A DNA stretch of 63,020 bases, filler included, from Dugesia japonica (taxonomy: Eukaryota), in NCBI GenBank assembly GCA_001938525.1. It is 6 parts of 6 records of this genome, joined end to end, with 100 filler letters (N's around TTAATTAATTAA, not from the genome) between each part and the next. Parts side by side here need not be neighbours in the genome. Positions count along the whole stretch, not along the records: positions 8,616 to 25,632 come from MQRL01635066.1; 5 more parts are not named here. The stretch is one strand, 5' to 3'. Positions 6,321-37,300 of the stretch are shown here, one piece after another (within the stretch, counting starts at the first letter, position 1; every line of letters starts with the position of its first letter). The notes beneath the pieces were generated by a model that saw nothing but the letters and a program-made list of their open reading frames with translations, was not told the DNA's origin and made no database searches. The position numbers and the translations under genes are program-made.

Positions 6321-6899
6321 GCTGACATCAATAAAATTTTTAAAACTTTTCATAGATTTCTATGTAATTTTTGAAACTAAATTGAAAACCAATAATTTTT
6401 GATTAAAATAATTTATTTTATATACAACAAATATGAGTAATGTTGCTTTTGAAATTGTTATTTTGTGCATGACTCATAAAATATTTGCACCTCTATTGTA
6501 TTTTCTTTGTTTAAGTTATATTTGTGTTGCACATGTATGACTTGTGGTCCTTGAATACTTGTAAATGTATTGAATTTTTGTTGTTTAACTTGTATTTTTA
6601 TTGCATTTTCTTTGTTGAATTTGTAGCTTTTAGTCCTAAAAACAATTAATATACGTTCACAATCACTATTATAGCCCTACAGAGGACTGGTAGTTTTTCA
6701 TTATTTGTGGTTCTAAAGAGGACCGGTGGATATTTACATATAAACAAATAAACTAATTACATTGCATTACATAACAAAAATTATTGTCTTAATTGGGCTC
6801 ATGAAAGCGACTGTCATAATATAATGGAAAAATATTATGAATAATGTTTGCATGATAAAAGTATTATATCTGTCCCACTTGCAGGTCTATAGGAACAGG

Positions 6900-7640
6900 A
6901 ACATACTTAAACTTTTATAGATTTAATGAAGACCACATTAGGTGGTTTATTGTAAATAAGACACAGTTATTAAATTCGTTATTAGAAAGCGATATAGATG
7001 AAAAGGTTATTAAGGACCCAGATAAATCTAATAATATCGATAAAATTTGTTATGTTTTAAATATTCCTTATTCTGAGGGCTTTAAGGATTTTAAAAATGG
7101 TTTACTAAAATTTTCAGTAAATCTCGCAAATTTTAAAATTGTGTCTCGGTCTTTTAAAATTACAAGTGCGTTCTGTAATAAGTTTAAGAATCCTTATGAA
7201 TCGGTTTCTAATTTTATTTATAAATATGATTGTAATGGGTATAATGCCAAATACATTGGAGAGACTTCTCGTCATCTCTGTAAAAGAATTCAGGAATATA
7301 GTCGGTTACGTAGTCGCAGTAATATTGTAGAACATAATATTCATTGTAAATCAGTTATAAAAATTAATAATTTCAAAATTTTGTGCGGAAACTTTAAAGA
7401 TTATTGGACGAGAGTCATGTGTGAAGCATTAATGATTAGATCTTACAATCCAAAAATTAATGTTCAAACGGATCTTTCTAAATCTTTATTGAATATCTTT
7501 ATTTAATTTGAATTTTATTGGGGCTGTTACATAATCGATTGCATAATGGAGAATTTTAATATTCATAGTTTAAAACAGTTTGTCTGAAGATGAAAAATAT
7601 ACTATCGAAACTTGTAGCTATTAATAAATATTGGTTTAAA
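6900..7640 (+). mobile_element. Penelope-like element 3' fragment with GIY-YIG endonuclease
   Basis: ORF 7141-7506 contains FIYKYDC...YIGETSRHL..RI.EY and CEALMIR..NPKIN, with an upstream LKIPY motif. A CTGAAGA...CGAAAC motif and AATAAA follow downstream. Confidence 0.85.
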
Positions 7641-8615: not shown

Positions 8616-8671
<56 letters not shown>

Positions 8672-8860
8672 CAATAATAATAATAATATAAATAAAAGTA
8701 ATAATAATATAATCATCAATAATAAATAATTGAACTAATTGGAATACACTAATTATAATGATAAGAAATGAAAACCGTAGTGACAATATGTTAAAATGCT
8801 GAAAATAACAATAATCATATGGATAATAATAATGGTAATAATAATAAGACTAAAATGTTC
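8616..8860. repeat. (AAT)n microsatellite and degenerate flank
   Basis: Visible AAT tandem run. Similar runs occur at 14603-14632 and 43350-43425. Confidence 0.9.
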
Positions 8861-8979
8861 GTAAACAGAAGGCTAATAGTAGTGGATACCGTAAGACTAA
8901 TGTTAATGATATTGTCGAAACCTAATGATCAAACTTAATACCGTTAATACTGAAAATATATTAATTATAATAACATAAC

Positions 8980-10011
8980 AGGTTATGAATTTCGTCTTAT
9001 GTGTATGAGTTAAATATGAAAATAATAATAAAAGAAAAATTATAAGATTAAGCCTTTTAAATAATTAAGATTTAATCATAAGAAAAATTAAATAGTACAT
9101 ACTGTGCTGGAGATGACTATGAGACAGAGTAACTGATTGAATATTAAATGGATGGACGGGATAAACTTGATGGATCTGTTCCTAGAATGGATTGAGACTG
9201 GATTGGAAAATAATTCGGTTAAACGAGATGTTTGATTCTTCTTTGGATATTGACTTCAAATACGAATGATAATTGTCTTTTCTGCTTCGAGTAATCAAGT
9301 GAAGTGAAGTAGTCTTCTCACACTGTTTTATATGATTTTCTTGGTAGGAGTAATTGAATCCTCTGCTTGTCAGAATTTTAATTGTTGTTGGGAAGACTGT
9401 CAGATGATTCGTTTGGAAGATAATTGCTGTTGACAGGTTAATTACTTGAGGATTGTGTTTTCGACTGACAACAATCTATTAGATCGAATTGTTGTGAGGA
9501 GACGTCAATTTTTGGATTGACAAGATAATTGTTACGTCACAAAATATGAGACTGTTGAAATTGTTGCGTCGATTTGATCAAATTCGAACACAGTAATTAG
9601 ATGAGCTTTGAAATTTTTCTTGGAAATCTTTTATTTACGAATCGTTTTTCTAGTTGTTAATTAACTAGTTTTAGGATTTTTGCGGGTCTTTTTATACCCT
9701 TTTCCAAGCATCGTCCTATCCGGATTGGTGGATTATTGCGATTAACTAAATTATTTTTTTATATTTGTTTTATATTTTTCCAGAATCTATTTATTTTCCC
9801 GATTATTGTTTCCTTATTTTCTTTAATACGATTCATAATTTAGCTTTTCTTATTTATTTTCAACAATGTAGGAGTTTTCGTTGGGAATTAATAGTAATNT
9901 TCAATAATAATAACTTTATTTGTTGAAATATAATTTATATTTTCTGGAATTAATTATCCATTTTATTTTATCATTTATTGTTGCAAGCTATAGTTGGGTT
10001 CTGTCCCAACA
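8980..10011 (-). mobile_element. LTR-like sequence beginning TGTTGGG (minus strand), partial or solo LTR
   Basis: Terminus ...GTCCCAACA at 10011 with a terminal hairpin, TATA-like GGGTATAAAAA on the minus strand near 9690, and non-coding GC-richer composition. The left end is not defined. Confidence 0.4.
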
Positions 10012-10269
10012 TAACTATAAGTTAAGTAATTTATTCAACTAGGGTTAAATTGACGAAATGAACAAAATCTAAGCGACATCATTATTTCATTAAAATAAAG
10101 CTTTAATCAAATTTCTTTTTTTTTGGTAATAACTCTAATTTTTGACTTTGTCTTCGTCACGAATTAACTTTTTTGATTTATTCAATATTTATTTGTAAAA
10201 ATTTTCTTTGAATTAATTTATTTGTGAACAAAATTTATTTTACTGAATTCTAATTAGTTAATTAAAGAC

Positions 10270-11640
10270 CCAATAAAATTTTTACTTCTAACAGTCAAAT
10301 GTTCCATTCTCGATGTCATCTGTTCCGAAAGAACACAAAACAACAATGAAAGGAAGACTTATTGTCAACGTTTCTTATACTCCTTCAACTGCATTATATA
10401 AACTTATTGCCGATATATTAAAATTACTATTAAATTTCATTCTGGGACATTTAAAGAATAGATATGAGTTTCTCGGACGAATTAAAATTATGAATGGAAG
10501 AATGACGATGAATTTGGTTCATTAGATGTAACAAATCCAAATGGATTAATTCCAATTGAAGGACCTTAAAATTTAATCGATGTAGTAAGTGATTTCTTTG
10601 AAAAATACAAAGAACATACAGATATTCCAAATCTGTATCTGAATCTCCAAAACTGATTTCAAATATTTATCAATTTGTATCTATTCTTTGACAGTATTTT
10701 TTATCGGTGAACAACCTTTTAAAGATAAACGTGGTTCAGTAATGGGTTGCAATTTGTCTTTAATTCTATGGATAATTTTTTATGAACTTCATTGAAAATC
10801 AAATAATTCTCATAGGTAAAAAGAAAATACATCTATGGTACAGAAATATAAAGGATATTTTTTTTGTTACAGATTCTTCTTTAGAGAATATTTTGGAACT
10901 AGTCAATAGTAATAATGATAACATCAAATTTACTTTAGAGAAGTCAATCGACTTTCAGATTCCTTTTCTGGACACCTTAATACAGAAGAAACTTGGTGAA
11001 TTATTCACTACCAAGTTATATATGAAACCATTTCACAGTGGACACATATTACCTTGGAGTAGTAATACGACCATCAGCCAGAAAATTGGTATAATCAAAG
11101 GTGAAAGAATTTGAGCTGAGAGTTTTTCTTCAAATGAAGAAATGAAATTTATTTCTCTCAAGTTGGTAAAAAATAAATACTTAAATAACGGCTAACCAAA
11201 TAAAATTATATCAAAATATTTATCTTTGAATACAAAATATAATAATAAAATCAAACCAAAAACAAGCACAGTTGTTAAAATACATTTTATTAATGAGAAA
11301 TTTAGCTAAATATAATAAATCAAAATTCTAAACTCAAGCACAATCCAAGAATTATAATTAAAACTTAAGCACGTTTGGGAATAAAATTACATAAACTAAC
11401 ACAGAATATTAGTGGTCTCAAATGCATTTGTGATGACAGAAATATATGCAATAAGAAAAATATTAGTTATAAAATAACATGCACTATTTGTCAAGAAACA
11501 TATATAGGTGAAACATGCAGAATCATCCGAACAAGAATTAAGGAACATTTGAAATAAAAAGAAAGTGAAGTCTTCAAACACTTTAGACACAAACATAAAA
11601 TTTCACCAAAACTACATTACATAACATATAAAATACTAGA
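10270..11640 (+). pseudogene. Penelope-like element RT plus GIY-YIG, degenerate
   Basis: Motifs LDVT, GSVMG..LS, WYRNIKDIF (YVDD-equivalent), IPFLDTLI, KPFHSGHILPWSS and YKITCTICQETYIGETCR, with multiple stops and frameshifts. Confidence 0.88.
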
Positions 11641-11649
11641 AAACCCTTT

Positions 11650-12350
11650 CACCTTTAATTATATTGATTTCCCGGCTGGTGGTAGTATTAATACTCCAAG
11701 ATAATATATGTCCACTGTGAAATGGTTTCATATATGAGTGATGGTTACATAATTATTCAGAAGTTCAGAGAAAAAGTCATTGCATGTCTGTTAAGGCAAA
11801 GCTACTAATTTATTTGTTTTCTTTGTTGGAGTGATGATAATTGATTTCAAATTCTTTATTTCTTTAATAATTTTGTTTTACATTACTTTTAGATTTGATT
11901 TGTTATATTTGTTTTTAAAAGTTTATTTCCGAGTTCCTTTACATTGTTATCAATTTCTGTAATGGGATAATTATACTTTGGTATCATACGTCTGAAGGAT
12001 TGTTTATAACTGTACTGATATTTCATATGTTGTGTTTCCTAATTTGTGCAATTGGCATTTGAGACTGTAAATGGAAGCTTCAATCATTACAATATTGGAC
12101 AAGTCAGAGTCTCCTGAATTTGCAGGAATATAGCTTGGTCCTTTGTTTAATAGTTCTATTTGTCTGTTAGTAAATGTATATTCTGTTAGATTTTGGAAAG
12201 GAAGAACAGTTGTATTGTTTACAACATCTGAGTTTGAATTTATTTTCATTTTGATTTTATCTTCTGTTTTATTTTTTATTTATTATTTCTACTTCCTAAT
12301 ACAAATATTTTTATTTGAATTATTTGTATATTATCTATATATATTTTTAT
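11650..12350 (-). mobile_element. Inverted, internally deleted fragment of a similar Penelope family
   Basis: PLE pre-RT motif NLTEYTFT..QIELLNKGPSYIP (12004-12249). ATGAAACCATTTCACAGTGGACA is shared in reverse with ~11022-11044. Confidence 0.75.
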
Positions 12351-12949
12351 ACTCATAGTTATTCATATTATAATTACATAAATGTGTTCATATAAAAATG
12401 ATTACACACATGTTTTTAAATAAATAATTAAATTGATACAATTAAACAAACATCAATTTCATTAATATAATTATAGAATTAAATTTCACAACTGGAAATA
12501 ATAAGACATTAGCAATTCATGGTTATATTTGTAATGAATAACAAATTTTATACATATAATACAATTTCAGTTATAACGCCGTTCTTAAAACCATAATGGT
12601 GATTTATCAACTATAATGGTTAGTTACTATCCGCAATAAGTAATACTTTTCACAAGTTACAATATGTTGATAGTAAAACTAACTGATTAAATACATAATT
12701 AGTACGATTTGTTAGTACACAAGAGGTAAATATCTATCCGTAAGAGCTGGAAAATGTAATGAGTATTTAGATAATGAGACAAAGGACACCTTCCTAAAGT
12801 TTTTTTATCATTATATAAGATGTTGAGTGCATGAAATATGGTCATATACGTACAAATTATGCTCATAGACGATTAAAATTTATATAAAACGTATATATAA
12901 ACGAGTATACATAAAAAAAATTTTAAAAAAAGGAATTCATCCAAAAAAT

Positions 12950-13620
12950 ATCTTTTCTATGTGATATTTTATGTAATGTGTCATCAACATCAACTGATTC
13001 TAAGAACTATTACAAACATTGTCAAATTCGTATTGATTCTTACCCTGAGGATTTCAAAATTTTTTCAGATGAGGTTCAGCAGTCTCATTTATATGTGCGA
13101 CAAAGGTTTAGTGTAGAAGAAAGTATAAAAACTAAATTTAGCCATGCTGAACTGTATTAAATCATAACAGAGGAAAATATCGCATGCATATTTCAAATGT
13201 AGATATTGCCTTTCGGATATGACTTAGATATAACGTTAATATAGATATAACGTTAATAATTACAAATTTTTCATCTAAGAGGTCATTTTCACGACTTAAC
13301 TATAATGAAAATACTGAGAGCACTAATAAAGCAAGATAGGCTGGATGGGTTATCATTGTTATATATAGAAACAAATGTGTTAAGGAAACTTTGTTATGAA
13401 GATCTGCTTAAAGACTAAAGGAATAAATATAGTAAAATATTATTAAATCACTATGAATAAATATTATGTTTCTATATACTACAAGCACGCAGAGGATTTC
13501 TTTTTGAATTATCAACGAAATACATTTAATTTTATGTTTGTTCATTTTTCATTAGAATTGTAACGGGGGCACAAAATTTTGTAAGTGCTTAGGGCCTCTC
13601 AAGGTCCTAATTCATCCCTG
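12950..13620 (+). mobile_element. hAT transposon 3' end (dimerization domain remnant plus terminus ...ATCCCTG)
   Basis: RSFSRL...STIKQDRLDGLSLLYIE-like remnant at ~13270-13370; right end reads CAGGGATGAATTAGG on the minus strand. Confidence 0.65.
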
Positions 13621-13701
13621 TTTACGTTGCACATATATATATGACATGAAAACAGAAAATAGCATCATCAGCATAGTGCTTCTCATCGAGGCACACGGTG
13701 A

Positions 13702-13911
13702 ATGTTAAAATTGATTTCAGGATTAATCTACCTATATTCTGAGAGTGAACGTTCTTTTTCAAAACTAACATGGATAAAGAATTATCTGCGTTCAACGATG
13801 GAACAAGCCAAACTATTATTGCTGGTATTACTATCTATTGAGAATGAAATAATGAGGAAAATGACATTAAGAGACGTTATACTGCATTTTACAAAAAAAT
13901 CGAAAAGCTAA
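13702..13911 (+). pseudogene. hAT dimerization-domain fragment (second element)
   Basis: SERSFSKL..IKNYLRSTMEQ..L..L..LSIENE is a canonical hAT C-terminal motif. Confidence 0.8.
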
Positions 13912-13980
13912 TATCATCTAATTATATCATTTAAAATAAAAGCTTCAATCAAAATTATTATTTTATTTGGTATTTGATAA

Positions 13981-14017
13981 CAATTTGATATTTCGACTTA
14001 GTCTTCTTCCGAAATTG
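13981..14017 (-). ncRNA. Minimal hammerhead ribozyme motif (core U4>G variant)
   Basis: CAATTT-CGGAAGA-A-GAC taa GTC-GAAA-TATC-AAATTG. The 6-bp stem I carries a compensatory change relative to the plus-strand copy. Confidence 0.65.
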
Positions 14018-14032
14018 TCAATTCAATCAAGT

Positions 14033-14069
14033 TAATTCCTGAAGAAGACTTAGCCGAAATATCGAATTG
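14033..14069 (+). ncRNA. Minimal type I hammerhead ribozyme motif
   Basis: AATTC-CTGAAGA-A-GAC tta GCC-GAAA-T-ATC^GAATT: stem I AATTC/GAATT, intact core, palindromic ATAT stem III, AUC cleavage triplet. Confidence 0.75.
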
Positions 14070-14602
14070 TTATCAAATACCAAATAAAATAAATTTGATC
14101 GAAGCTTTTATTTTAAATGAATTCTGAAAAATGATAAATGGTTATGTCCAACAATTATTCTCGCAATAATTGCAATTGTAAAATAATTTTATCATATTTG
14201 AAATGAAAATAAATGAAATGAAAACATATTTTCAATTTTGTTTTCGTTATATCGTTAGCAAGATAGAATTTATACTTAAATAAAATGTCTTTTTTAGAAT
14301 TTTGTAGGCACATCATCATCATTATCATCGACAACAAAAAATTTAAAAACATATTTTAATATTAAATATTAAATATATTTATTTTAATTTANNNNNNNNN
14401 NNNNNNNNNNNNNNNNNNNNNNNNNNNNNNNNNNNNNNNNNNNNNNNNNNNNNNNNNNNNNNNNNNNNNNNNNNNNNNNNNNNNNNNNNNNNNNNNNNNN
14501 NNNNNNNNNNNNNNNNNNNNNNNNNNNNNNNNNNNNNNNNNNNNNNNNNNNNNNNNNNNNNNNNNNNNNNNNNNNNNNNNNNNNNNNNNNNNNNNNNNNN
14601 NN

Positions 14603-14633
<31 letters not shown>

Positions 14634-15299
14634 CCACAAAAATTGAGGACACGTATATCGCGTAATAAATTAAATTTGATTTTTTAATTACAATTAACAT
14701 AAAATATTTAAGTCAAAAGAAGCAATGTTATTCGTCTTCATGTTTGCGTTAAATCGGTTTTTCTAATTTCCGTTAAAGAATTGTTTGATTATATTCATTT
14801 CTATTTCGGTAATTCGATTTTAAATAAAAGCATTTAATCGTTTTCAAATTAATTAAATTCCATTAAAATTTTCATTTTTAATCTATATAAATAATTAATT
14901 TCATTTTGTCCATTTGATTAAATTTTTTTACAAAATATTTAATTAGATCATGCTAATGAATTTTTTAAAATTCTCTTTCTGTAATAATTTTAATGAATTA
15001 ATGTTATTATTATTAGTAATTGTAAAATCTGATATCCTTGAAATAAACAATCGGGTACCCAACGTAAGTAAATCACATAATATTTTTTACTAAAAATCGA
15101 AAGTCTCCTTACAGAAACTTCTGCATTTAAAATGTAAAATTTAGTAAAAAATTTGAAAAATTATAATTTTTAAAACGTCAAACGCATTATGACTAAAATG
15201 AAAAATCAGAAAAAATTACATTTTTGTCAACTATTAAAATTGTTTTTACAAAATCATAATGGCTAGTAAATTTATCTTTAAAATAGCTACTACAATTTA

Positions 15300-15587
15300 A
15301 AAGAATCTTGCTATAGAATGTAAAGGTGAAAATCTGTAAAAAAAAGATATTTAAATGAACATAATATTAGATATAAAAAAGAAATAATAATAAATAAATA
15401 AAGAAAAAAATTAGACCAAGAAACGTTTAACAAATATAAAGAAATAAGTTCTCGCAAAAAACAAGAAATAATGAATTTTACTTATTGAAAAATCTAAAAG
15501 TGAAGAGAAAATCAAAATCAAAATATATTCAAATCAAAGCCCTTGTACAACTGTTCTTCCTTTCAAAAATCTATTTGAACATACATT
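15300..15587 (+). mobile_element. Penelope 5' fragment interrupted by the Polinton
   Basis: ACTGTTCTTCCTTTCAAAAATCTA matches the reverse complement of ~12185-12210. Homology stops at 15587. Confidence 0.6.
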
Positions 15588-15654
15588 AGTAATAAGGGAA
15601 TGAATGAAGTAGATCAGAGGCATGAAAAAAATTTTTCATTTTTCAATTTTTATG

Positions 15655-15935
15655 AAAAATGAAAAATCAACCATGAAAAATCAACCATGAAAAATCAACC
15701 ATGAAAAATCGACTATGAAAAATCGACTACAAAAAAATCGACTATAAAAAATTCCACAAATTGCTAGAAAAAATCGACTATGAAAAATCGACTATAAAAA
15801 ATCGACTATAAAAAATTGCGCATAAAAAATTCAACATAAAAAATCACAAATAAAAAATTCCAAAAAATACTATAAAAAAAAATTCCACAATGTGCTATAA
15901 AAAAAATTCCCATACCACAAAGTGCTATAAAAAGT
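15655..15935 (+). repeat. Subterminal ~13-bp tandem repeats (AAAAATCAACCATG / AAAAATCGACTAT)
   Basis: About 15-20 degenerate units immediately upstream of the pPolB ATG. Confidence 0.85.
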
Positions 15936-16021
15936 TTTAAAAAAAATTCACCTCTTAAAGAGGATACCCACCATACCCCATGAAAAAAATATATAATAGG
16001 ATTAAATTATTAATTTATAAA

Positions 16022-19000
16022 ATGGCACCAACATACAATACTTGTTCTAATTGTGGAAAAAGTTTTTCAAGTCGAACGCCATTTAATATCTCATTTTAAA
16101 AAATGTACTAAAGATCCAAATGTAGTTTTCTCATGTGAAGTATGTCGTAAAAAATTTAAAACTGTGGTGGGGCTAATATATCATATTAATGCATCAAGAT
16201 GTAGAAATTCTCAAGATGCAAATTTACATTGTGAGATTTGTAATCTAACTTTTTCAAAACAACCTTTAGCAAAATTACACTACAATAGTGAGTCGCGCAA
16301 ACAAACCGCCGATCCAAATTCAGAATTTAATATTTCAAGAATATTTAATGAGCTTCCAGGTGATGATGTAGTTGTTTATATGGATCTGAATATTGATAGA
16401 TTATTTAGAGTTAAATANCTTGAATATGAAATTAAACATTTTAAAAAAAGTAGAATTAAAATGAGGTGGGATATTTCTCATTTAGAAGAAGATAAAACTT
16501 ATCCATATAGAGAATAGATAATAGAAATTACAAAAATATTTTTAAATTATGGAAAGAGGATAAATTTTAGATTATCAGCTAGAGGTAAATANNNNNNNNN
16601 NNNNNNNNNNNNNNNNNNNNNNNNNNNNNNNNNNNNNNNNNAATTTACATTGTGAGATTTGTAATCTAACTTTTTCAAAACAACCTTTAGCAAAATTACA
16701 CTACAATAGTGAGTCGCGCAAACAAACCGCCGATCCAAATTCAGAATTTAATATTTCAAGAATATTTAATGAGCTTCCAGGTGATGATGTAGTTGTTTAT
16801 ATGGATCTGAATATTGATAGATTATTTAGAGTTAAATANNNNNNNNNNNNNNNNNNNNNNNNNNNNNNNNNNNNNNNNNNNNNNNNNNNNNNNNNNNNNN
16901 NNNNNNNNNNNNNNNNNNNNNNNNNNNNNNNNNNNNNNATAATAGAAATTACAAAAATATTTTTAAATTATGGAAAGAGGATAAATTTTAGATTATCAGC
17001 TAGAGGTAAATATTTAAAACTTGTAAATGGCAATCTTGAAGAAAGAATTTTTAAATCTTATGCGCAACTTGAAAAAAAGTATAAGAAGAAAAAATTAAAA
17101 ATACTGTTTTAGAACAATTACTTCATCTTGAGATGCATTTAGAAGATAACGATAGAGAAGGAAGTGGTTGGAAGTTACATCATATAATTAGTTATACAAT
17201 TGAATTAGAAGTGTACAAGTCTAGAGCAGGTGGTTCTTCATATCAAAAGTTACCATTTAAAAAAATGGGGGTTATTAATATAAAAAATTATGATGATAAA
17301 TGTTTTCTATACTCAATTTTAGAACACAAACATGTTTTAGAAAATCCAAGACAATCCGGGTATCAAGAATTTCTTAGTGAGTTAAATTATGAAGGGTTTG
17401 ACTTTCTCAATGAAAGTGGATGATGTAAAACGATTTGAAAAAATATAATTGGAAAATTAATGTTTTTGAAATTGAAAATGAAAAATCTCTTATTCCACTT
17501 TATACTCCTCATTTTTCATGTAAACTAAACCAGGAAGAAAATAAATGTAATTTATTACTTTATCAAGAACACTATGTACTTTGTAGAGATTTAAATAGTT
17601 ACATGTGTAATAAAAATAAAAATAATTTTTGCATTGACTGTATGAATGCGTATCGTAGTAAAGATTTATTTGAAAGACATCAAGATGAATGTGTTCGCCA
17701 TAAACCAATAAAAACGCGATTTTGCAAAGAAGAATTCTTTTATTTTAAAAATCACCATTTTAAGAATAAGGTCCCTTTTGTAGTTTATGGTGATTTTGAG
17801 ACGTACACCAATACTATTGATAATAAACAAAAACCACTATGCTTAGAAGTATGGCTTGAAAGTCTATATCAAGATTTAATTCCCACACATAGAAAAATTT
17901 TCACAGGTGAAATTATTTTAGATAATTTTATAAAATATTTAGAAATGTTAAATAAAAAAATAAATAATATTATGGATAATCCCCCACAGGAAAAAAATGT
18001 TCCATATGTAGTAAAAAATAAATGTAGGTATTGTAATAAATATTTAAATAAAGATCGGGGAAAAGATTTTAATAAATTAACTGGAGAATTTCGTGGATAT
18101 ACACACAAACGTTGTATTAAAAAAGCATCTAAAAAAATATTTCTTCCATTCTACTTTCACAATGGCTCTGGTTATGACAACCATCTTTTCTTTAGAGAAC
18201 TTTTAGTAAAACATCCAAATGATGTAGGTAATATAATTCCACATTCAGACGAAGTATATATTTCATTTGAGTTTCCAAATATTAGATTCCTCGATTCAAG
18301 TAGAATGTGTAGCAACACATCGATAGAAAAAATAGGGACTGTGTTAAATAAAACCGGTAAATGCCCACGTTTAAATGCCTTCAATGTAAAAGCAAAAAAA
18401 ATCATATTTCCTTATGAATATGTAAATGGAAAAAATGTAGAAGAAGTAATGGAATTATTAAAATCGGATAGAATTCCGACAATGGATGAATGTTACAATA
18501 CACTAAAACAGAAAAAAAACGGAAGAGGAGTATAATGAATTTCTTGAAGATATAAGTCATTTTAAAAATATGTGGGAATATACAAAACATTACATGAAAA
18601 TCGGTGTTTTAATTCTAGCAGACTTTTTTGAAAATTTTAGAGATGTTTCTTTAGAATATTTTGAAATCGATCCATGTTATTGTTATTCCGCACCAGGACT
18701 TACATGGGCCGCAGGGATAAAATTTACAAATGTAAAATTAAAATATGCAAAACCAGAAACATTCTCAATATTTTTAAAAACAGAACGAGGAACTAGAGGA
18801 GGTTACGCAGGATGTTATGGTGAGAGGCAAGTTTTTCCCTTTAATAAAAAAATCTCACCTCTGAAGAGGCTAACTAAAGCAGAATATGATGATTTAATGA
18901 AAATATTAGAACGAGGAGAAAATATTCCAGAGAGTTATTTTGAGGAGACATTTTTAAAATATTTAGATCAAAACTCCTTGTATTCTGCATGCATGACAAA

Positions 19001-20169
19001 ACCAATTCCAACAGGTGAATTGAAAGAATGTGAAGAACTAACATATGAAAAAGCAACAGATGATTACAATTTCATTTATGAGGTTGATTTAGATTATTCA
19101 CCTGAAATTCATGAGAAAACGAGATATTATCCATTAGCCCCAGAGAGAATAAATATCACACTGGATATGTTAGCCACATATCAAAGAAAAATTTATTAAA
19201 ACACCCAAAAAATAATGTTAAATTAACACTTAATCAATTCGATAAAAAAACTATATTATATTAGGAAGTACATTAGATCCTTTTTTAGAACTTGGAATGA
19301 AGTTGTCAAAAATTCATTACAAATGTAATATGCCAACAAGCCCATGGTTAAGAGAATATATTCTTTTTAACATTGAAAAGAGAAATAAAGCAAAAAGAAA
19401 TGGTGATGAATTTGGTGATTATTTATTTAAGCTTTTGAATAATTCATTTTATGGAAAGACCCTTGAAGATATTAGGAAAAGATGTAATGTGGAAATTGTA
19501 GGAACTGATGAAGAATTTCAAAAGTTTGCAGCAAAACCAACATATAAATATTCAAAAACTCTTTCTCCAAATATAGCCGCAATGCACATGCAACAAACCA
19601 ATCTTAAATATAATAAATTTCCATTCATCGGCTTTACAATTTTAGAATACGCAAAAGAAGATTTGTATGATTTTGTATATAAAAAGATAGCCCCACTAAT
19701 TGGAATGGAAAATTACAAAATTCATTATTCTGACACAGATTCAATCTTTGTGGAAGTCAGGCGGTAAGAAAATTTGGACAAGTTCAAAACTCTATTAGGA
19801 AATGACCTCTTTCAAATGAAAGATGAATTACCTAATAGTATAATTACAGAGGCTTGTTTTATAAAATCAAAGGGTTATGCATTTAAATATGTAAATGAAG
19901 ATGGAAGTATAGATTTTGATGCAAAACACAAGGGAATAGCTAAGGGAAATAATATACAAATGGCAGCTTATAATAAAATTTTAAAAGATTCTCAAGAAGT
20001 GATTTTTGGAGTAAACTATCGTTTAAAATCTCACAAACATCAAATAGAATTAGTTCATCAATGTAAAATAGCTTTAACCGCATATAATGATAAACATTTA
20101 CTAGAAGATAATGGAATTAGAGAAGTGCCACATGGTAATCAATATAAATGTGTAAATTGTCAAGTGTAG
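16022..20169 (+). pseudogene. polB: Protein-primed family B DNA polymerase with N-terminal C2H2 zinc fingers; frameshifted
   Basis: Zinc fingers (CSNC, CEVC..H, CEIC); EGSGW; VYGDFET (ExoI); FHNGSGYDNH (ExoII); FLDS; YLDQNSLYS (motif A); KLLNNSFYGK (B); YSDTDS (C); KHKG. Split over several ORFs, with assembly gaps. Confidence 0.95.
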
Positions 20170-20213
20170 CATTTAAGATCTCATTTCTTATGGGAAAATT
20201 TAGAATGCCCAAA

Positions 20214-20792
20214 TTAAACTTTTAAATTACTTAATATTTTTTCATAATTTTGATTTAGCGTATTTTCACTTTTAGATTTTAAAATTAATTCTTGAACTTC
20301 ACGAATCATTGTCTTACTTGTAAAAATTTCTTCATCAGTTAAAATATTATCATTCAAAGCCTTTTGTTGAAATAGGAAAAGTTTATTTTTAACAGCCTCT
20401 AATTTTACAATAAGATTGGCGTACTTCTTTTTCTTCTTTTGAATTAGTGATGAATTTAATGCACCAGTAATTGGAATTGAAGATCCTATTCCAGTTATTA
20501 TAGGAAGACCAATTGTAGTAATTCCAAAACCAAGTGGAGTTGCAAAAATCACACCAACAATGGCTACGCCGGTTCCAATTAAAATTTGTGCAATTTTTAT
20601 TCCATCATCGGCGGCGCTCCATTTACTATAAAATTTTTGAAAGTGTTTTATTTTATCATTTATAAAATAAAGGTCATTTTCAAAATCTTTAATTCTTAGA
20701 GATGACAATTTACTTTTTAGGTCTTCAAGTGTATAAGTAGTAATACCATTTTGATAATTTTTTTAATCTGGATACAAGGATTTTTCTGCCAT
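20214..20792 (-). CDS. Polinton accessory membrane-active protein (hydrophobic Gly-rich hairpin; similar to the adintovirus 'gasderminX'-type ORF)
   Basis: ATG at 20792 (MAEKSLYP, then frameshift), two hydrophobic helices, a basic cluster and a KALNDNILTDEE motif. Confidence 0.6.
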
Positions 20793-20796
20793 TTTA

Positions 20797-21213
20797 TTAT
20801 GATAAATTTTCAAATATTTTTTTTGATAAATCTTTAGGACAAGCATGAAGAATAACAAGGTTATTAATACCGGCTGGTAAAATTAAATAAAAAAAATTTA
20901 TTTTTACACTTACCACCACATTAAATGTGATATCATCTTTTTTCATCTCATCAGGGACTTCATAATCGCTTTTACCCCCCTTTAATTTTAAGGTGTTTAT
21001 TTCTAATTTAAATTTTCCCAGTTTTTCATAAGTAAAATCTAAAATCTCATCAGAACCAGTAAAATTAATAATAATACTAATTTTAGGTATTTTCGTATAT
21101 CCAGAAATAAAAACACATATTGGACCAAGAAATGTTTTAGCTGTAAAATAAAGTTTTAAAGGACCTATAAGAAAAAAAAATAGTTTTTCATTAAGATACT
21201 TCCTAACGACCAC
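20797..21213 (-). CDS. Unassigned Polinton ORF (degenerate)
   Basis: A 138-codon open frame, co-oriented with and abutting the next gene. No recognisable motif. Confidence 0.35.
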   Translation of the reverse strand: MVVRKYLNEKLFFFLIGPLKLYFTAKTFLGPICVFISGYTKIPKISIIINFTGSDEILDFTYEKLGKFKLEINTLKLKGGKSDYEVPDEMKKDDITFNVVVSVKINFFYLILPAGINNLVILHACPKDLSKKIFENLS

Positions 21214-21584
21214 TGATTATTACTTTTTCTAAAGTTGCATAAATTTTTTCAAAAGAATAATACGGAAATTTATTATTATCTTAAAGTAAAAAATACATTT
21301 TAAAACATATATATATTTCTAAGTAAACATCATCCCACAGTAAATAATTATCAACTAGTTCTTTAAATTTTTCTAATGCCTCTAATGATGTTATTATTGT
21401 TTTTTATTGATAATTAAATAGAGTTGAATAATAATTCTGTCTTAGCGGTAGTGAGAAAACACATTGTATATGTAGGTTTTTGTAGAGCCCAAAGTTTTTT
21501 TAAGTTACGTTTCAAACGCATTTACTGACATGAAGGAGGTGGTTGAAAAAGCGGTTTAACACATAAAGAATATTAGGGTGATAA

Positions 21585-21735
21585 ATAGGTTTATGAGTTT
21601 AGGGTTTATGAGTGTATGGGTTAATAAGTGTATGGGTTAATAAGTATATGTGTTTATGAGTATAGAAGGTTTATGAGTGTATAGGGTTTATGGTATATGA
21701 GTGTATGGATTTATGATTGCATAGGGTTTTATTAT
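21585..21735. repeat. 16-17-bp minisatellite (GGGTTTATGAGTGTAT) inside the Polinton
   Basis: About 8-9 degenerate units with strong G/T strand bias. Confidence 0.85.
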
Positions 21736-22199
21736 CATTGATGGAAAATCTTGTGGTTTTAAAGGTTCTACAAGAATAAAATTTTATACTTGTCATTTTC
21801 TTTGTATAGTTATTTGAAAAATATCAAAAATTCTAGATTTTGAACATTCAAAATTACATAGTAATGAATCAAATTATACTGTTAATCATTAACAATTTAA
21901 TTTAAATTATATTTGTTAGTAAAATCTTCAATTGGTGATTCATTTTGAAAATCACAATTAATATTTTTAGACATCATTTATTTCCATACTACAACACATG
22001 CTTAGTAAGATCATTATAATTGAAATAGAACTGATTACATTTTAAAATGGAATTTGATCACTTTCTATTGGCTAAAATTATTAAATAATAATTTTATCCT
22101 TACAATATTGATTTCTATATTAAATTTCTAGATACTAATGTCTAAACAATAATTACCGGGAATTAATTTATTATATCATCGGATTATACAAAATATTGT

Positions 22200-22552
22200 G
22201 TTTTTTCTTAGTATTCTTAGAAAATGAAAAATATATTTTTGTCAATAAAACATATTTTGTAAACTATAAATACATGCAAATAAATAATTTCTCTGTTATA
22301 TTGCTTTTTAAACCATATTAAACAGTGTTGTTGGTAAGTTGTAAATGGATCTTGATAACAAATTTTATTGTACACAATTGGTTTTGATGATTTTGATAAA
22401 CGCGACACAATCATTGATAAATTATAAAATGCTAATGGATTTGAGCAGGTTTACTAAAATATAGTTTGGAAGTTTATCTATTGCAAAACATCTAGCCACA
22501 CTGATCCAATAATTTTTGTTGCAATTCGATCAATCTGAATGGAACTAATAAA
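22200..22552 (-). pseudogene. Adenain-like cysteine protease (Polinton PRO), degenerate
   Basis: SSIQIDRIATKIIGSVWL/CFAIDKLP N-terminus and YNKICYQDPFTT..QHC (Q...C catalytic region). Confidence 0.65.
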
Positions 22553-22599
22553 TTAAATTATAAATAATATTATATAATTATTAATTCATTGCAATTATT

Positions 22600-23807
22600 T
22601 TGAGAATACATATGATGGGTTGACACTAAAACTGTTTCGTTGTCTTTAAACTGAACTTTCTTTTCAAATACATCATAAATGAAAACATATGCTGATGACG
22701 TTAAAGATTTAGCAAATTTGATATCTAATATCAAATTTTCTTGTTGATTCTGATTTGTATCAAAATCTGGGGCAAAAACAAATCAAAAGAATGGATGATT
22801 GTCCTTAAAACTGGTAAGTGTTTATGTTACTATCCAAATATCCCATATTTCTTACTATAGATTGCATATATGTTGTGGTATAATTATCGTTGGCAAAATC
22901 TTAAGTATATTTCTCAATAATCAGTGTTTTTCGTCAAGGAAACAGAAGCAGCATCTAAATTTTTAAATTTTGAACTTGAGCTTTTATAACTACCATAGCA
23001 TTGTTCTCTACTTTGAAATGTAACCAGAATAAAGCTAGATAATTGACAATCACCAAAGATTTATTCTGTATAAAACTATGAACTATCTTTACTTATTGCA
23101 AATGCAACAACTTCCTTGGTTTTTATTGGATAAATAGCATTTATATTTTTAAGACCTAGTTAATGAAACGCTGGTACTGAGGGTTCAACTCGTACACGTC
23201 TAACCATTATCTAGTATCTAGTAATACATATTTAGGCTCATTGACTGCAGATTTCAAACAAATCTTAGAGGATGATCGTTTCAATCGAATATGAACATTG
23301 ATATCATAAGATTTTTCGGTTAATCCATGAAATTAAGTTGCAATGAACCGCATAGAGACAATTGTTTTGATATTTTAATAGACTTTTTTCTATCTGCTTC
23401 TTATCTATATATCATTGCTGTAAGACAGATATTCTTACTATTGCCATTATAATTTATTATAGTTTCAATGAATGCTTTGTGAAGATAAGATCCATTTTCA
23501 TCTACAATTTTGAAATTATTAAACGAGAGAATTGCATTCTTGAAAATTGTATGCAACATATAGTTACAGCATCATGAGTGTCAGCCATATCTTTACCTGT
23601 CTTATCAACTACCTTCACTTTAATATACAAAATAGTATCATTCAAATCCAAATATTTTGTTCGATAGTCATTTATAAAAAACTCTACGTTGCTTTGTGAT
23701 TCAGAAATCGAATTCATAGGAAAGACATATTTAAAAGTACCACTTTTAATTACAGCTTGTTGATATGGACGATCAAAAATACATAATTCACTTTTACCGC
23801 AAATCAT
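22600..23807 (-). pseudogene. Major capsid protein (double jelly-roll, hexon-like/PY), frameshifted
   Basis: The N-terminus KSELCIFD.PYQQ...VEFFI....YLDLNDTILYIKVKV is characteristic of Polinton MCP. Coding-like remnants continue to ~22600. Confidence 0.85.
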
Positions 23808-24245
23808 TTTTCAAATATTGTTCCATGTCCGCTCATTTGCTCGTTTATACGTGATGCATGTGATTTGTACTTTTTTTATTAGTTGGTATTGTTTTGGGCT
23901 GATTGATAGCATATTAGTTATTTCAAATGGTATTTGATTTGTTATACTTTGCGCTAATATACCTGCTACTTTTGGAATAATACTGGTTACCCTACTATGT
24001 TACGATGGCATAACATTTCTAAATTGAGCTAATGCATTGGATTTTAATGTTGGTAGTATTTTTTTATCCTTAGCCAGTACATCTTTAGCTGTTTTCATTC
24101 CAAATAAACCAATACGTCTAAGAATAAGTAAAGCAAATATACCTATTGTTTGTAACCAACCAGATCCATACTGTTTTCCAAGAAAGTAGTGTAATTCTCC
24201 ACCTACTTGACTAGTACTATACAATAATACAATATCAGAAATCAT
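23805..24245 (-). pseudogene. pX-like small core protein
   Basis: QVGG...FLG.QYGSGW....R motif (Gly-rich protease-site-like), ending ...GTIFEK*. It lies between penton and MCP. Confidence 0.6.
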
Positions 24246-24247
24246 TA

Positions 24248-25072
24248 TTAATTTTTCTAAAATGGGACATTAAATGAGTCTTCAGCAAAGTTGATTAGTT
24301 TTCCACTATCATCACGTATATTAATTTCTATATTGTTTGTATATGATGAAGAAATAGGTAAAAATATTGGATGATCAGCAAGTCTTTGAACTACTTCACC
24401 AGTCTCATGTTGTTTTATCCATACTGCTTTCAATAAAGAAATATTAACATCACCAACAACAATAGGTTCACCATACTACAATAGATGAACATTTCATTAT
24501 AACAATTTAATATTCTAGGTTTCTTGATACTTTCATATTATAGTTGTTCATTATCAATACGTATTTGAGTATATTGCGAATCTTTTAATCCTAATGACTT
24601 TGTTAAGATTTTATCGAATTTAACACTTTAGTTTATCTTGACAATGTAAATTGAAATAGTTCATCTTGCATACATGAAAATGTTTTAAATTAATTAAAAT
24701 GTTTTTAAAGTATTTTCTTAAAATATTCATTTAGTTGATTTAAATCATTTATATACAATTTGGATTCAAATTGAAAATAATGTTTAGTTACAATTGCATA
24801 ATAAAATTTAATATTTATTTGTTCAACGTAATCATCACTTTTAAAGTCATAAAAACGAATCAAAAAAGTTTGATGATCATCGAAATTTATACTATTATAC
24901 TTTTTCTTAATTTTTCCTCTACTATATGTAAATCCTACCAAGTTTTCACAAGTATCAAATGATAAACTGTGGAATTTAATAACACTACTAAAGGTTCTTA
25001 TTTTTCTTGAATTTTATATCTGTTTCTGTATTATTTTCATATTTAATTAATAGTTAAAAGAACTTTTTTCAT
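24248..25072 (-). pseudogene. Minor capsid protein (penton, single jelly-roll), frameshifted
   Basis: C-terminal MFIYSSMV/EPIVVGDVNISLLK, HPIFLPI, IEINIRDDSGKLINF and HFRK motifs typical of Polinton penton; N-terminal YENNT. Confidence 0.75.
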
Positions 25073-25074
25073 TG

Positions 25075-25632
25075 GTATTAACATCAAGTATTAGATCCTT
25101 CTTAATTGGTTTAAATAATTCATATTCAATCTTTTCAATATCGGCTTGTTTAGACTTGTTGGGTTGCCGATTCCACCAAGTTAGAATCAAGTGCGTCTAC
25201 AGAATATATGTAAATAATCGATTACCCAACTATAGAAAAATCTTTGTGAAAATCTTAAATGAAGGGTTCGGGATCTACTCCGTAAAATTTTTAATTAATT
25301 CAATTTTCAAATATAATTTTCAGAAACTCTTATTTACTTTAATTTTAAAATTTGATAAATTATGCTAAATGTGTATATTATTATTTAATCAATTAAAGTT
25401 TTCATCATATTTATTGAGCTGTGGATCATTTATTGAATGGCTTCTCACCATTTGAAATGATCTGTGCTTTTTATTTAATGGGTTTATTTTCATCTATCGC
25501 CATTACTCGTCCATATTATTAAATAACATTATATGTTTTGTCGCTTTTCAAATTCAAAATTACAAAAATTTTATAATTTACATGATCACTCGGGATAATC
25601 AATATTCATTCATAGATTTTACAGTTTCATAA
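25075..25632 (-). pseudogene. Degenerate Polinton ORF(s), unassigned (PW-like?)
   Basis: Coding-like remnants upstream of penton. No clear DDE or Walker motif was seen. Confidence 0.3.
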
Positions 25633-28152: not shown

Positions 28153-28380
28153 GAATATCGTAATTTAGCTTTGGGTCATAATACAAATGAAGTACGAATG
28201 GTATTCACACCATTTAATTGCGTTCAATGCGGTACTGATTTCACACCTCTATGGAAACGAGAACGGCCGGGTAGTAGTAAGGTTGTGTGTGAGTCTTGTT
28301 GTGGAGAGAATTATCGTCGAGCACTACAAAATGACTATCAAGATAAAATTCGACTCGTACTTAAAAAATATCAAGATCAG
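28153..28380 (+). CDS. GATAD2: p66/GATAD2-family NuRD subunit, exon encoding the CR2 GATA-like zinc finger
   Basis: Contains PFNCVQCGTDFTPLWK...VVCESC. Acceptor ttttag| and donor CAG|gtaaat, phase 0/0. Upstream exons are not found in this contig. Confidence 0.88.
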
Positions 28381-29819
28381 GTAAATCAAATTTTTATTTT
28401 CAAAAAAAATGCAATTATTAAACTGTTCTAATTGCTATTGATTTCATATTAAACATTTAAAATTTTTTTTATTTATTGTTAATTTATATTAATTTTTCGT
28501 CAATTCTAACTATTGAATTATGTTTATGTTTTTTTTCAATTTTTTTGATCCTTGAAAATTATTGCAAAATTAAATAAAAATTTTTAAAATGAAAAATTCT
28601 ATTTATAAGCATTACTTTTCTTTTGTTTATCATTGTTATCAATTTATTTGTAAGAATAGTGAAATTCAGGTTTATAGTAATTGAATTACATGTTTGATAA
28701 ATCTGTTGATNNNNNNNNNNNNNNNNNNNNNNNNNNNNNNNNNNNNNNNNNNNNNNNNNNNNNNNNNNNNNNNNNNNNNNNNNNNNNNNNNNNNNNNNNN
28801 TTTGCTTAGTTTATATTAATTCTTATTCGAGAAATTTCAATAAATCATACGAAGTTTACAATTCATTTCAAATATCTGAATACTAAAATTTGTTGCTGAT
28901 TATAAAAAAAATATTAAGATAATCACTTTGTTTTTTTCTGATTTTGTTATTTTAAAAAAACTAATTTGATAACAATTAAACACGAATTTTGATAAATCAC
29001 TACACCGTAACGATGTAAAGAAAAAAAAAATTCACATAATGCTTAATTTTTATTTATTTTTTGAAATATTCTGTATTTTTAAATAGTTAACATTGTTCAA
29101 ATTTGGAAAAAACCATATTGTGGATTTTATTTGTCGTATTATAACATCTGATCAATAATTTATGAGACAAATGTCGATAAATATATTTGTTATTCAAATA
29201 TCATATCCTAATTGTAACCAACCAAATTGCAGTCTAAATTGTTTTACAAAAGATTTTACGATGATTTTTATACTAAATAAATTAACTTTTATCAATGGAA
29301 ACAAAACTGTTTTCAATAGAAATTCGATTCATTATATTAATCGCGTAGTTTTCTTACTGTGGAATTATTTTACAAATTAGACAAAACTAACAAATTTTGT
29401 CAACAAATAGTAGTATGTAAAAAAACGATGGCAAATGTTTAATAAAAAATAAATAAAACTTTGTTATTTTTTTACGACGGATCAACCGTCATCTTCTGAA
29501 AAAAATGAGTTTATTCTTTCAATATTATTTAAAGAAATATTAATGCAATTTTACTGAATATAAGATGGCTATAAATTTTTAATATTCTAATCAAAAAAAA
29601 AATTTTCGATAATAATATTTTATTGAAATTACTATTTTAAACCTATAAAAATCAAAAAAAAATTCAAATTCTCATAACTAAATCCATTACAAAGGTTTTA
29701 TTAAGAATAAGCATTTTTGGAATCTGCATTTTTGACAACGCGATAAAAGTTTATTTATTGATTCCAATTTGAAAAAAATCTAGATTTCTAGAGTCAATTG
29801 AATATTCAAATACCTTTTT

Positions 29820-34393: not shown

Positions 34394-37300
34394 AAAATTT
34401 TCAATATAATATTTTAAAATATCGATTTTATTTTTATGAAATATTTTACTTTACATAATAATTTCATAAAATAAATTAAAAATATCGATTTAATTTTATG
34501 ACATTTTATTTTACATGTATTTTAAACATAAATTTTAATATTATATATATAAAATTTAAAGAAAGATTTCTCAGATATTTAAATCTATGAATAATTCTTA
34601 CATCTCCCCTCTTTAAAATATTTTTTAATCTTTTCCACATTTATTTCAATCATCTTGTTTTCTGAACTCTTCAGTAGGTATCGTCTTTCATGAATCTGTT
34701 TGATCACCTCGTATGGATCTGTGTATCTTTCTTTCTCTTTTGATCTGTTTTCTACCTTGATTAATATAATAAACTTGAAAATGTCTCTTTTTTGGTGTCA
34801 TCTCTCCGGATTGTTCATCATTTTCTCCATTATTGAACCATCTTTCTCTATAAACTTTCTTACCGAATATCACCTCTGCTAAACTTATTTCCAAAGTCTT
34901 CTGGCTTGTTGCATTTAGTGTATATTAATTTTCTGGTATTAACACTGCCAAATTTTTATTCTTATTCTCTTTTAAAGTTGCATTGATGTAATCTCTGATT
35001 GTTCTGAATTGCCGCTCTACTTTTCCATTTGTATTATGATGATATGGACTTGAAAAGTAAATTGTTATATTAATTGAATCTGTCATCTATTTGAAGGCTT
35101 TTGATTCGAAGATCTTCTTGCAATCTACAAGTATCTCTTTTGGAGCAACAAATCTCAGTATCCATAAATTATGCATTTCTATTACCATTTGAATTTTTCT
35201 TTCTGACGAGATCCATATTTTGCCGTCTTTTTTTTATTATAGCTTCTATTTACAAAACGTTTTACGAAACTTTTTACATGTTCCATTTTTTATATCATTC
35301 TTTATCTGTTCAATTTCTTCCAAGTTACTTTGCAATTTATATGTATCTAAGCCAGATATACCATTAAATGTTCTTCTCTTTATTTTCCCTTTCTTTGGAT
35401 TCTCACGATCTGTTAAGCATTGTACACGCATACCACAATTCATTCTCGACAGCATATCTACATTCGTGTGTCTCGAACCTTGTCTAAATTCCAATACCAT
35501 ATCTAGGCTACTAAGAAAATTCATCCAAGTCTGAAATAGCGGAGTAATTGGCTTGTTTGTCATTTTCATAAATGCTATCGTCTTGTGATCTGTTCTCACC
35601 AAAAATCTTTTTCCATACAAATAATGTTCAAAATGGTTACAAAAATAGTAAATAGCCAATAGTTCCTTTCTAGTTATATAATATCCTTTTTCATGAGCTG
35701 AAATTGCATGTGACCCTTATGCAATGACTTGTTCTACACCTCTTCCATCTATTTGCGATAAAACGGCTCCGATGGCATAAAAACCCGCATTTCTATCTAG
35801 TACAAACATCTTTTTGATATCGGTGCTTTTGTTAATGCCTCTTTCATCTCATTAAAAGCTTTATCATAATTTTCTGACCACAAAAGTTTTTTATTATTAC
35901 TTCTGTTAGATGAGTTTGGAATACTCATCGGATCATTAATATCAGAACTCGAATTCATTACAAGATTTTTATATAAACAAAAACTATACATATAAATTTG
36001 TTTTTTGCAAACAAATTTAAAATTTCATATTCAAAACGGAAAACATAAAATATCAGTATTTGCAAAACATTTTAAAATTTAACTAATTTCCAATTTTAAA
36101 AATACATTTTATATATTTATCCTATTTAACAAATATTTAACAAACTGATTCCAATAAATTCCGCCTCAAAATACAAAAAATTAAATCTGCTTTTAAAAGC
36201 TACCTTTCAACTTCTACATAGCTCTTTTAAGCTTCTAGCTTTCTTGGAGTAATTATTGATAAATCGTCTATAGTAATTGCATATTCCCAAAAAGCTTCTT
36301 AAGTTCTTCACACATTTGGGTCTTCCGAAATATTTTATCGCTTCAATTTTTGTTGAATCAGTTCAAACATGTCCTAAAAATTTGACTTTAATATAGAAAA
36401 ATGACTTCTAAATGACATTTTTCTCGATTAATTCTCAATCCTGATTCTTGAATTCTTTTAAAAACTTGGTCTAAAATCCTATAGTGCTGCTCTAAATTTT
36501 CTGGAAATATCAATATATCATCCATGTATACCTCTTAATATGTTTTCATTAATTTTTGTAACGTTCCAGGTGCTGTAGCTATACCAAAAGACATTCTTGT
36601 GAAACAATACTGTCCATTTTTTGTAGAAAATGCTGTTTTCTCCTGTGAATCTTTATTTAACGGAACTTGATAATATGCATTACCCAAATCCATAGCACTA
36701 AAATATCTTGTACCACTCAAATTGTCTAGTATTTCCTCTACATTGGATATCGGAAATGCCTGTCTTTTTGTAATTGAATTCAGTTTTCTAAAATCTAGAC
36801 ATAATCCTTCTTTTCTTTTTTCCAAACACATATTAACGGCGTGTTCCATTGCGAATTACACTTACTAATAATGCCATTATCAAACAAATTCTTGATAGTT
36901 TCATCGATCTTTTTCTCTAAATGCATTGGTTGTCTCCATGGTTTTGTGTTTATTGGTTCTCCATTTGTGATTATGTGATGTTCTGCTATTGTTGTTCTGC
37001 CGATATCCCAGTTGTCTGCCATGAATAATCCTTTATAAATCATTATAACTTTCTCCAAATTCTCGTTTGGCTTGTTAATCAATATTTTTATTGCTCTCTG
37101 TACTGTTTCTTCATCCGCTGTACTGCGTCCATACTTTGGTTCTATATTACAAAGATACATTTCAGTCTCCTCACATTTAATATCTCTCAGCAGTTGGAAT
37201 TCAAATTGTTTCTGTAATTCTATTCCTCCTATTAGATCTGGATGTATTTGTTTCACGACAATGAATTTAACTGTTTCGCTTTTATTCTCGAATTCCACTT

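Follow-up and report, generated by a model that had tools for sequence, protein, structure and literature searches.

The window analyzed here, a stretch of 63,020 nucleotides from the planarian Dugesia japonica, carries a pPolB pseudogene on the plus strand (about 16,014-20,169) that converges on minus-strand remnants of genes for a penton, a PW/core-type protein, a major capsid protein and an adenain protease (Table 1). The initial annotation had described this opposition of a plus-strand pPolB and a minus-strand virion block, and the Pfam DNA_pol_B_2 matches, the polymerase motifs and the capsid, PW, penton and adenain matches reported below confirm it. A GATA-finger exon, an ABC transporter gene and a DDE transposase are also found in the window.

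Table 1. Features of the locus, with positions counted along the window
Feature	Position	Strand	Remarks
Likely left end	15608..15910	+	AGTAG-type start, then 14-bp-unit tandem array; putative terminal inverted repeat
pPolB pseudogene	16014..20169	+	N-terminal C2H2 zinc fingers, exonuclease and polymerase motifs
Exact duplication, 421-bp offset, across N gaps	16221..17012		100% identical copies
Hydrophobic accessory ORF	20214..20762	-	182 codons open; hydrophobic stretch at about residues 54-89
Open frame, 139 codons	20797..21216	-	No significant match
A32/FtsK-type packaging ATPase remnant, truncated	21441..21576	+	About the first 67 of 220 profile positions
16-bp-unit tandem array	21588..21716		ATPase match ends here
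Segment matched by many contigs	21816..22290		No match in profile search
Adenain-type protease remnant	22295..22573	-	Profile iE 1.2e-8
Double-jelly-roll major capsid pseudogene	22624..23807	-	Six pieces, 8 in-frame stops; fold predicted from intact relative
Small gene in Maverick PW slot	23970..24260	-	Profile iE 2.4e-34
Penton (minor capsid), C-terminal part	24275..24753	-	Profile iE 6.3e-24 and 2.8e-7
Segment matched by many contigs	24754..25632		No match in integrase search

Polymerase, virion and packaging genes

Plus-strand pieces of pPolB match Pfam DNA_pol_B_2 with E-values of 6.5e-7 and 1.5e-4, and Exo I/II and Pol A/B/C motifs were found along the gene, which is interrupted by at least four frame changes and one in-frame stop and has altered Exo III and Pol A motifs. 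Seventeen of its 51 long homologues contain Endonuclease_7, and the three named matches are all from animals. Identity to the best database matches is 30-39% for pPolB versus 65% for the capsid; sequence searches of the PDB returned nothing useful for either protein.

Pfam gave zero matches in any frame of the virion block. Through profiles and intact relatives, the capsid, the protease remnant, the PW gene and the penton were all matched. Aligned with its intact relative P0002, the capsid is identical at 262 of 405 positions (65%), with 5 frame changes in addition to the stops listed in Table 1. A model based on this alignment (pLDDT 51) matches the capsids of Sputnik, mavirus, D13 and iridovirus (best E 1.6e-5), with no hexon among the matches listed, and on this predicted fold the major capsid is of the double-jelly-roll type. 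The capsid profile retrieved 6,247 representatives at E≤1e-3, and Pfam returned nothing for the intact capsid relatives. Contigs with 0 differences over 22536-22860 argue against intact frames at the locus; contigs over 21540-21862 (0-1 differences), in which three DNA runs reproduce the array junction, likewise count against them.

The protease remnant scores 84 in a frameshift-aware alignment versus 20±3 in 12 shuffles. It is devoid of the stretch bearing the catalytic His and its Asp and Cys motifs are altered; its relatives match Peptidase_C5 and, weakly, ASFV S273R and adenain chains. The penton-slot gene is homologous to the gene occupying the same slot in relatives, an assignment made by sequence and position, and was named penton from its position (PMC4028283) and from the likeness, judged by eye, of its relatives to the PX alignment of PMC4028283. 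Its N-terminal part was not detected in the profile search, and 24754..25632 may correspond to a diverged penton N-terminus or to an accessory gene. The gene in the PW slot, earlier called pX-like, has no family or fold support for a pX identity (no Pfam or significant structural match was obtained); it likely encodes a protease-processed core protein, a function that we infer. Five weak frameshift-aware matches (z 3.8-6.9; 112 tests, 12 shuffles each) were taken as noise.

The packaging ATPase had been expected beyond the contig break. Its N-terminal remnant lies instead inside the element, on the same strand as pPolB, as in vertebrate Mavericks, and scores 94 versus 22.6±1.6 for shuffles despite a frame change, stops and an altered Walker A loop; its relatives match Pfam Pox_A32 above the cut-off. 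A search for an integrase in the scaffold was negative (best E 0.18). The scaffold ends upstream of the penton, the region in which relatives carry an rve integrase. The negative search is consistent with the proposal that the integrase gene lies past the break.

The minus-strand ORF located after pPolB had been described as membrane-active. A hydrophobic ORF with a predicted helix-hairpin-helix is indeed present, read from 20762 to 20214, but its membrane activity received no family or fold support: 0 homologues were found among 215 candidates, Pfam gave no match, and the fold search (pLDDT-56 model) returned a single iridovirus match (E 3.6e-4). A SLATT identity is not supported, SLATT-domain proteins appearing only at E 0.55 and 1.1, and a gasdermin-like identity was unsupported by the same fold search. 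That this frame stays open amid an otherwise broken element could suggest that the host has retained it as a functional gene. We consider this highly improbable: the nearest upstream in-frame Met runs into a stop, almost no RNA reads map there, and the open length is unremarkable because pPolB contains longer open pieces.

Boundaries, integration and sister copies

The initial annotation began the element at 15588. We reject this terminus because the match to the neighbouring repeat continues across it, reaching about 15600-15607; the AGTAG motif begins at 15608, which is more likely the left end. Sequences at 155 and 43181 resemble the 14-mer at 15608, but the likeness is gone after about 14 bases; apart from the query itself the 14-mer has 6 matches, as many as in the shuffle with the highest count, and reads formed no loose-end pile at either candidate position among the rows shown. 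We infer the terminus at this site, its partner arm and target-site duplication lying outside the scaffold, which stops at 25632, at the N/TTAATTAATTAA/N spacer. The duplication within pPolB is likely an assembly artefact.

A virus-like gene set might also be expected of a free, non-integrated adintovirus genome assembled together with host DNA. Such an origin is largely refuted, and we give it next to no weight, by the breakage of every core gene and by the left flank, where host repeats run on for 7 kb in the same scaffold and are matched by contigs of DNA runs X1, X3 and X4 with 0-1 differences.

The family of the element has many copies in the host. In one DNA run, 18,634 contigs align over 8.7 kb at 85% or more, with exact pieces at a depth of about 10. 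Sister copies account for almost all RNA reads, since 3 of 45, 2 of 753 and 1 of 48 reads are at least 99% alike to the locus. With the observed gene homologies, breakage of each gene, layout and many sister copies, we read 15608..25632 as a broken, likely non-functional, integrated Polinton/Maverick copy of a multicopy family, organized in two converging modules (probability of about 0.85). Judging from what is known of the family, an active ancestor would have had a linear genome copied by a protein-primed polymerase and integrated by an rve integrase, the gene for which would lie past the scaffold end; the A32 ATPase would likely have loaded the ancestor's DNA into a capsid of double-jelly-roll type, with adenain as the maturation protease.

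Gene order and ancestry of the two modules

Gene order was compared across 29 fetched loci chosen by capsid match. Penton, PW and MCP follow one another in all 19 loci holding the three genes, MCP precedes the protease in 16 of 16, and the complete penton-PW-MCP-protease order occurs in 9 of 9 loci with all four genes; pPolB is convergent on the virion genes in 5 of 5. The same order has been published for Mavericks, adintoviruses and adomaviruses, it is the module order of vertebrate Mavericks (PMC8097293 section 7), and a passage of 10.1101/341131 terms it syntenic with adenoviruses. The view of the locus as a decayed, adintovirus-like Polinton with a virion module stands, but its adenovirus-like order is no special feature: this is the standard published Maverick layout, and in this respect the element is ordinary.

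Several observations would suit a composite locus in which two Polinton families meet close to the array at ~21.6 kb, or the replacement of the polymerase by a distant one. The ATPase breaks off at this array, and summed contig depth, which does not equal copy number, is far greater on the capsid half than on the pPolB half. Among loci with capsids that are 34-48% identical, the pPolBs share only 22-30% identity with the main pieces of the element's pPolB but 42-49% with another pPolB fragment from the window. A first tree placed the element's pPolB outside a 100/100 clade formed by them, and passages of PMC8502044 and PMC10748475 describe polymerase swaps. However, the element's pPolB has a long branch of unsure placement, and an AU test based on 21 of the 56 rows does not reject its grouping with those loci (p 0.62), the constrained tree scoring better by 4.9 log units, which leaves the swap suggested by the first tree unsupported. 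The layout also fits the known two-module plan, and we regard a composite or swapped origin as unlikely compared with a single integrated Maverick.

The family had been proposed to be undescribed in this host. This is doubtful given that PMC4028283 (Table S1) already lists four Polintons from Schmidtea that carry capsid/ATPase genes. The papers searched contained no sequence-level account of the family, no relative turned up in scans of viral contigs, and the main text and part of the supplement of PMC8502044, in which degraded endogenous adintovirus copies are described, contain no planarian name. That the copy marks a flatworm Maverick lineage not yet catalogued, one combining a long-branch polymerase and an orphan membrane protein with a vertebrate-like layout, and that its sister copies are still transcribed and may make particles, is a rather unlikely prospect; if true, Maverick virions could be sought in an animal that is easy to work with in the laboratory. 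The element alone matters little, decayed Mavericks of the same gene order being common and described, beyond the corrected annotation of an internal ATPase remnant and a shifted left end. Greater importance would follow only from intact and expressed sister copies, because Maverick particles had not been observed according to the abstract of PMC8097293 and planarian Polintons are reported in PMC8532177 as piRNA targets partly de-silenced in differentiation.

Comparison with known systems

The late region of Adenoviridae shares the relative order penton, core, hexon, protease and a related protease, but the listed matches of the element's capsid model are to capsids of virophages and large DNA viruses and include no hexon, and no pX match was found. 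Membership in Adenoviridae was rejected on the 406-aa capsid with these predicted folds and on the rve integrase carried by relatives. Adintoviruses with a Beta-class virion module (Starrett et al. 2021, PMC8502044) are alike in PolB, penton, hexon, adenain and FtsK, and have, as here, a small gene between penton and hexon. The proposed Adintoviridae are further characterized by an Alpha- or Beta-class PolB with an OTU domain at its N terminus and by membrane-active core genes (PLA2X, or Cupiennin and GasderminX with a pX-like domain); in the element the N-terminal region of pPolB is broken and interrupted by gaps, and neither the PW-slot gene nor the hydrophobic ORF gave a Pfam or significant structural match. 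Among metagenomic Polintons (L001-L029) and ENA/Logan capsids (P0001-P0006), to which the element's capsid is 54-65% identical (P0005, P0002), the penton-PW-MCP-protease order and the convergent pPolB are shared. Unlike in the element, their ATPase lies on the capsid strand upstream of the integrase (all 8 fetched loci with an ATPase), their protease is followed by an additional gene, and they also have a TBP-like gene; neither was detected in the window. Polinton-1_SM and Polinton-2_SM of Schmidtea mediterranea (PMC4028283 Table S1), likened by description only, possess MCP, penton, ATPase and protease as does the element. Vertebrate-type Mavericks (Barreat and Katzourakis 2021, PMC8097293) differ from the element in their end motif, (AGT)2 instead of AGTAGA, whereas the element resides in an invertebrate host, has all its genes broken and holds two minus-strand ORFs between pPolB and the ATPase; both share the plan of two modules that run towards each other, one with pPolB and the ATPase, the other with minor capsid, PW, major capsid and protease.

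Coding content of the decayed element

The element occupies the right-hand end of scaffold 8616-25632 in a setting of about 27.5% GC (spacers between scaffolds read N44-TTAATTAATTAA-N44). It is a genuine Maverick copy, thoroughly broken and of standard layout. The decayed Polinton proposed in the initial annotation is borne out by frame changes and a stop in pPolB, stops in the capsid, and remnants of the ATPase and protease.

Features of the element (positions along the window)
Feature	Position	Strand	Evidence
pPolB	16014-20169	+	open pieces match zinc-finger families and DNA_pol_B_2
Accessory ORF, 182 codons	20214-20762	-	
Second accessory ORF, 139 codons			
Packaging-ATPase remnant	21441-21576	+	tblastn E about 1e-4; profile iE 9.7e-5
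Protease remnant	22573-22298	-	profile match
Small gene	24254-23988	-	profile match
Penton C-terminal part	24753-24275	-	profile match

Motifs that we take to be Exo I, Exo II, Pol A, Pol B and Pol C were placed in the pPolB, whose presumed Exo III departs from the form found in 47 of 54 homologues and whose Pol A departs from that found in 41 of 54. Four or more frame changes and an in-frame stop interrupt the gene, and an exact duplication within its region, offset by 421 bp and spanning N gaps, is likely an assembly artefact. Among 51 long homologues the best identity is 30%, Endonuclease_7 occurs in 17, and all three named ones come from animals. This pPolB looked too distant from those of the capsid relatives, and the phylogeny suggested initially, built on 45 of 56 rows (the remainder aligned too weakly or were too short), sets it apart from their clade, at the tip of a long branch. 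With 21 rows, the AU test did not reject their grouping (p 0.62), and a polymerase swap is not supported here; the available portions of PMC8502044 and PMC10748475 do describe such swaps.

Two more pPolB C-terminal fragments lie on other scaffolds, at 1603-2259 (-) and 37952-38207 (+). Pieces of them are 31-54% identical to the pPolBs of three metagenomic Polinton loci (L006, L011 and L015) and the element's own pPolB is further off, which indicates two or more lineages of Polinton in the genome. An integrase-like remnant (3316-3765 (-), profile iE 1.3e-6), about 1.1 kb from the first fragment, may belong to that fragment's Polinton or to an LTR element.

The packaging ATPase had been expected beyond the contig break; its remnant lies instead inside the element, as indicated by tblastn, profile and a frameshift-aware score of 94 against 22.6±1.6 in 12 shuffles, and its relatives pass the Pox_A32 cut-off. 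It ends at a tandem array, and a 323-base contig over this junction shows 0-1 differences in three runs, one from each of three studies, and the source may be among them.

In the 182-codon ORF a hydrophobic stretch peaks at 2.16, and a helix-hairpin-helix is weakly modelled. Homologue searches, including a scan of viral contigs and the relatives' loci, gave none, and fold comparison gave a single match at E≤1e-3, to an uncharacterised protein of an iridovirus; the ORF's description as membrane-active is thus unproven. No protein was assigned to the 139-codon ORF or to the segments 21816-22290 and 24754-25632.

Virion module

Six intact capsid relatives of 406-409 aa were retrieved with the first 89 codons of the window's capsid. 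Alignment to one of them, P0002, yields six pieces with 262 of 405 residues identical and eight stops in the window. A structural search with a model of the P0002 alignment (pLDDT 51) gave 49 matches at E≤1e-3, the best at E 1.6e-5. They include Sputnik, mavirus, vaccinia D13 and iridovirus capsids; two listed at the tail are unrelated hydrolases. The capsid profile retrieves 6,247 representatives, and the metagenome scan gave 29 loci from whose genes the penton, small-gene and protease profiles were built. Penton part and protease remnant are recognised by these profiles and the capsid by the modelled fold of its relative, so the virion module stands in decayed form.

Against Peptidase_C5, protease relatives range from E 4.6e-6 (L005) and 0.05 (L011) to no match (L006), and they weakly match ASFV S273R and adenain chains; set against their alignment, the window's protease is missing the stretch with the His, and its Asp and Cys motifs are altered. 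The small gene retains QxGG, found in 19 of 21 relatives, and QxGxG, found in 20 of 21; both resemble adenain cleavage sites. Its earlier label, pX-like, found no pX match in Pfam or in a further family and fold search. The putative penton is named from its slot and from the by-eye likeness of its relatives to the PX alignment in the available part of PMC4028283.

Among the metagenome loci, two penton-type genes stand in tandem in L011 (5610-7684), L012, L014, L026 and L029. A TBP-like gene occurs in L006 (2160-2618, Pfam TBP E 2.7e-17), L011 and L017, the last with two.

Ends, copies and surroundings

The start first assigned, 15588, is likely flank, since an inverted match to 12173-12277, which we take to be part of a Penelope-like element (a label for which Pfam gave no backing), runs on across it in the alignment. 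AGTAG occurs at 15608, directly ahead of a 14-bp array, and marks a candidate left end. Similar AGTAG-starting 14-mers at 155-168 (+) and 43181-43194 (+), each followed by AT-rich repeats, are possible Polinton ends; their scaffolds also carry pPolB fragments. Such 14-mers are marginally more frequent than expected by chance.

In one DNA run 18,634 contigs matched 16939-25632 at ≥85%, mostly 85-95% alike, beside exact pieces at a depth near 10, which points to a large, diverged family and to real sequence of this copy. Similar pieces occur under a second species label (run X8). The segment at about 21816-22300 has far more contig matches than adjacent segments and the top RNA-read share in run X10. 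Three RNA runs, sampled at 6-25%, gave 45, 753 and 48 reads, most fitting the element only in part; only 3, 2 and 1 of these were ≥99% alike, so the transcripts come mainly from sister copies.

Elsewhere in the window are an apparently intron-free ABC transporter ORF of 1568 uninterrupted codons (56381-61087 (-)) and a GATA zinc-finger exon (28153-28431 (+)) that resembles p66/GATAD2. Fragments at 34826-37358 (-), 54440-54919 (+), 6859-7506 (+) and 10776-11114 (+) have the look of a gypsy-type pol, a mariner-type DDE transposase (DDE_3) and Penelope-like elements.

Comparison with known Polintons

Available parts of the literature describe planarian Polintons as piRNA targets (PMC8532177) and Mavericks as expanded in Dugesia (10.64898/2025.12.11.693146). 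Four Schmidtea Polintons are tabulated in PMC4028283 Table S1, and for two of them capsid, penton, ATPase and protease are recorded.

Within the 29 loci, the order penton, small gene, capsid holds in 19/19 with all three, capsid-protease order in 16/16 with both, and pPolB is convergent in 5/5 reaching one; nine carry all four virion genes. The available text of PMC4028283 places the penton gene mostly one gene from the capsid gene, and that of 10.1101/341131 reports penton, core, hexon and adenain as syntenic across adomaviruses, adenoviruses and adintoviruses. In vertebrate Mavericks, according to the accessible part of PMC8097293, pPolB, ATPase and PZ share a strand and the opposite one carries integrase, minor capsid, PW, major capsid and protease, with the modules pointing inward. 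The adenovirus-like order noted initially is therefore present as the rule, rather than as a distinguishing mark. The ATPase, found in 8 of the 29 loci, lies there on the capsid strand upstream of integrase (8/8), unlike that of the window, whose layout is the vertebrate Maverick layout as given in that part of PMC8097293.
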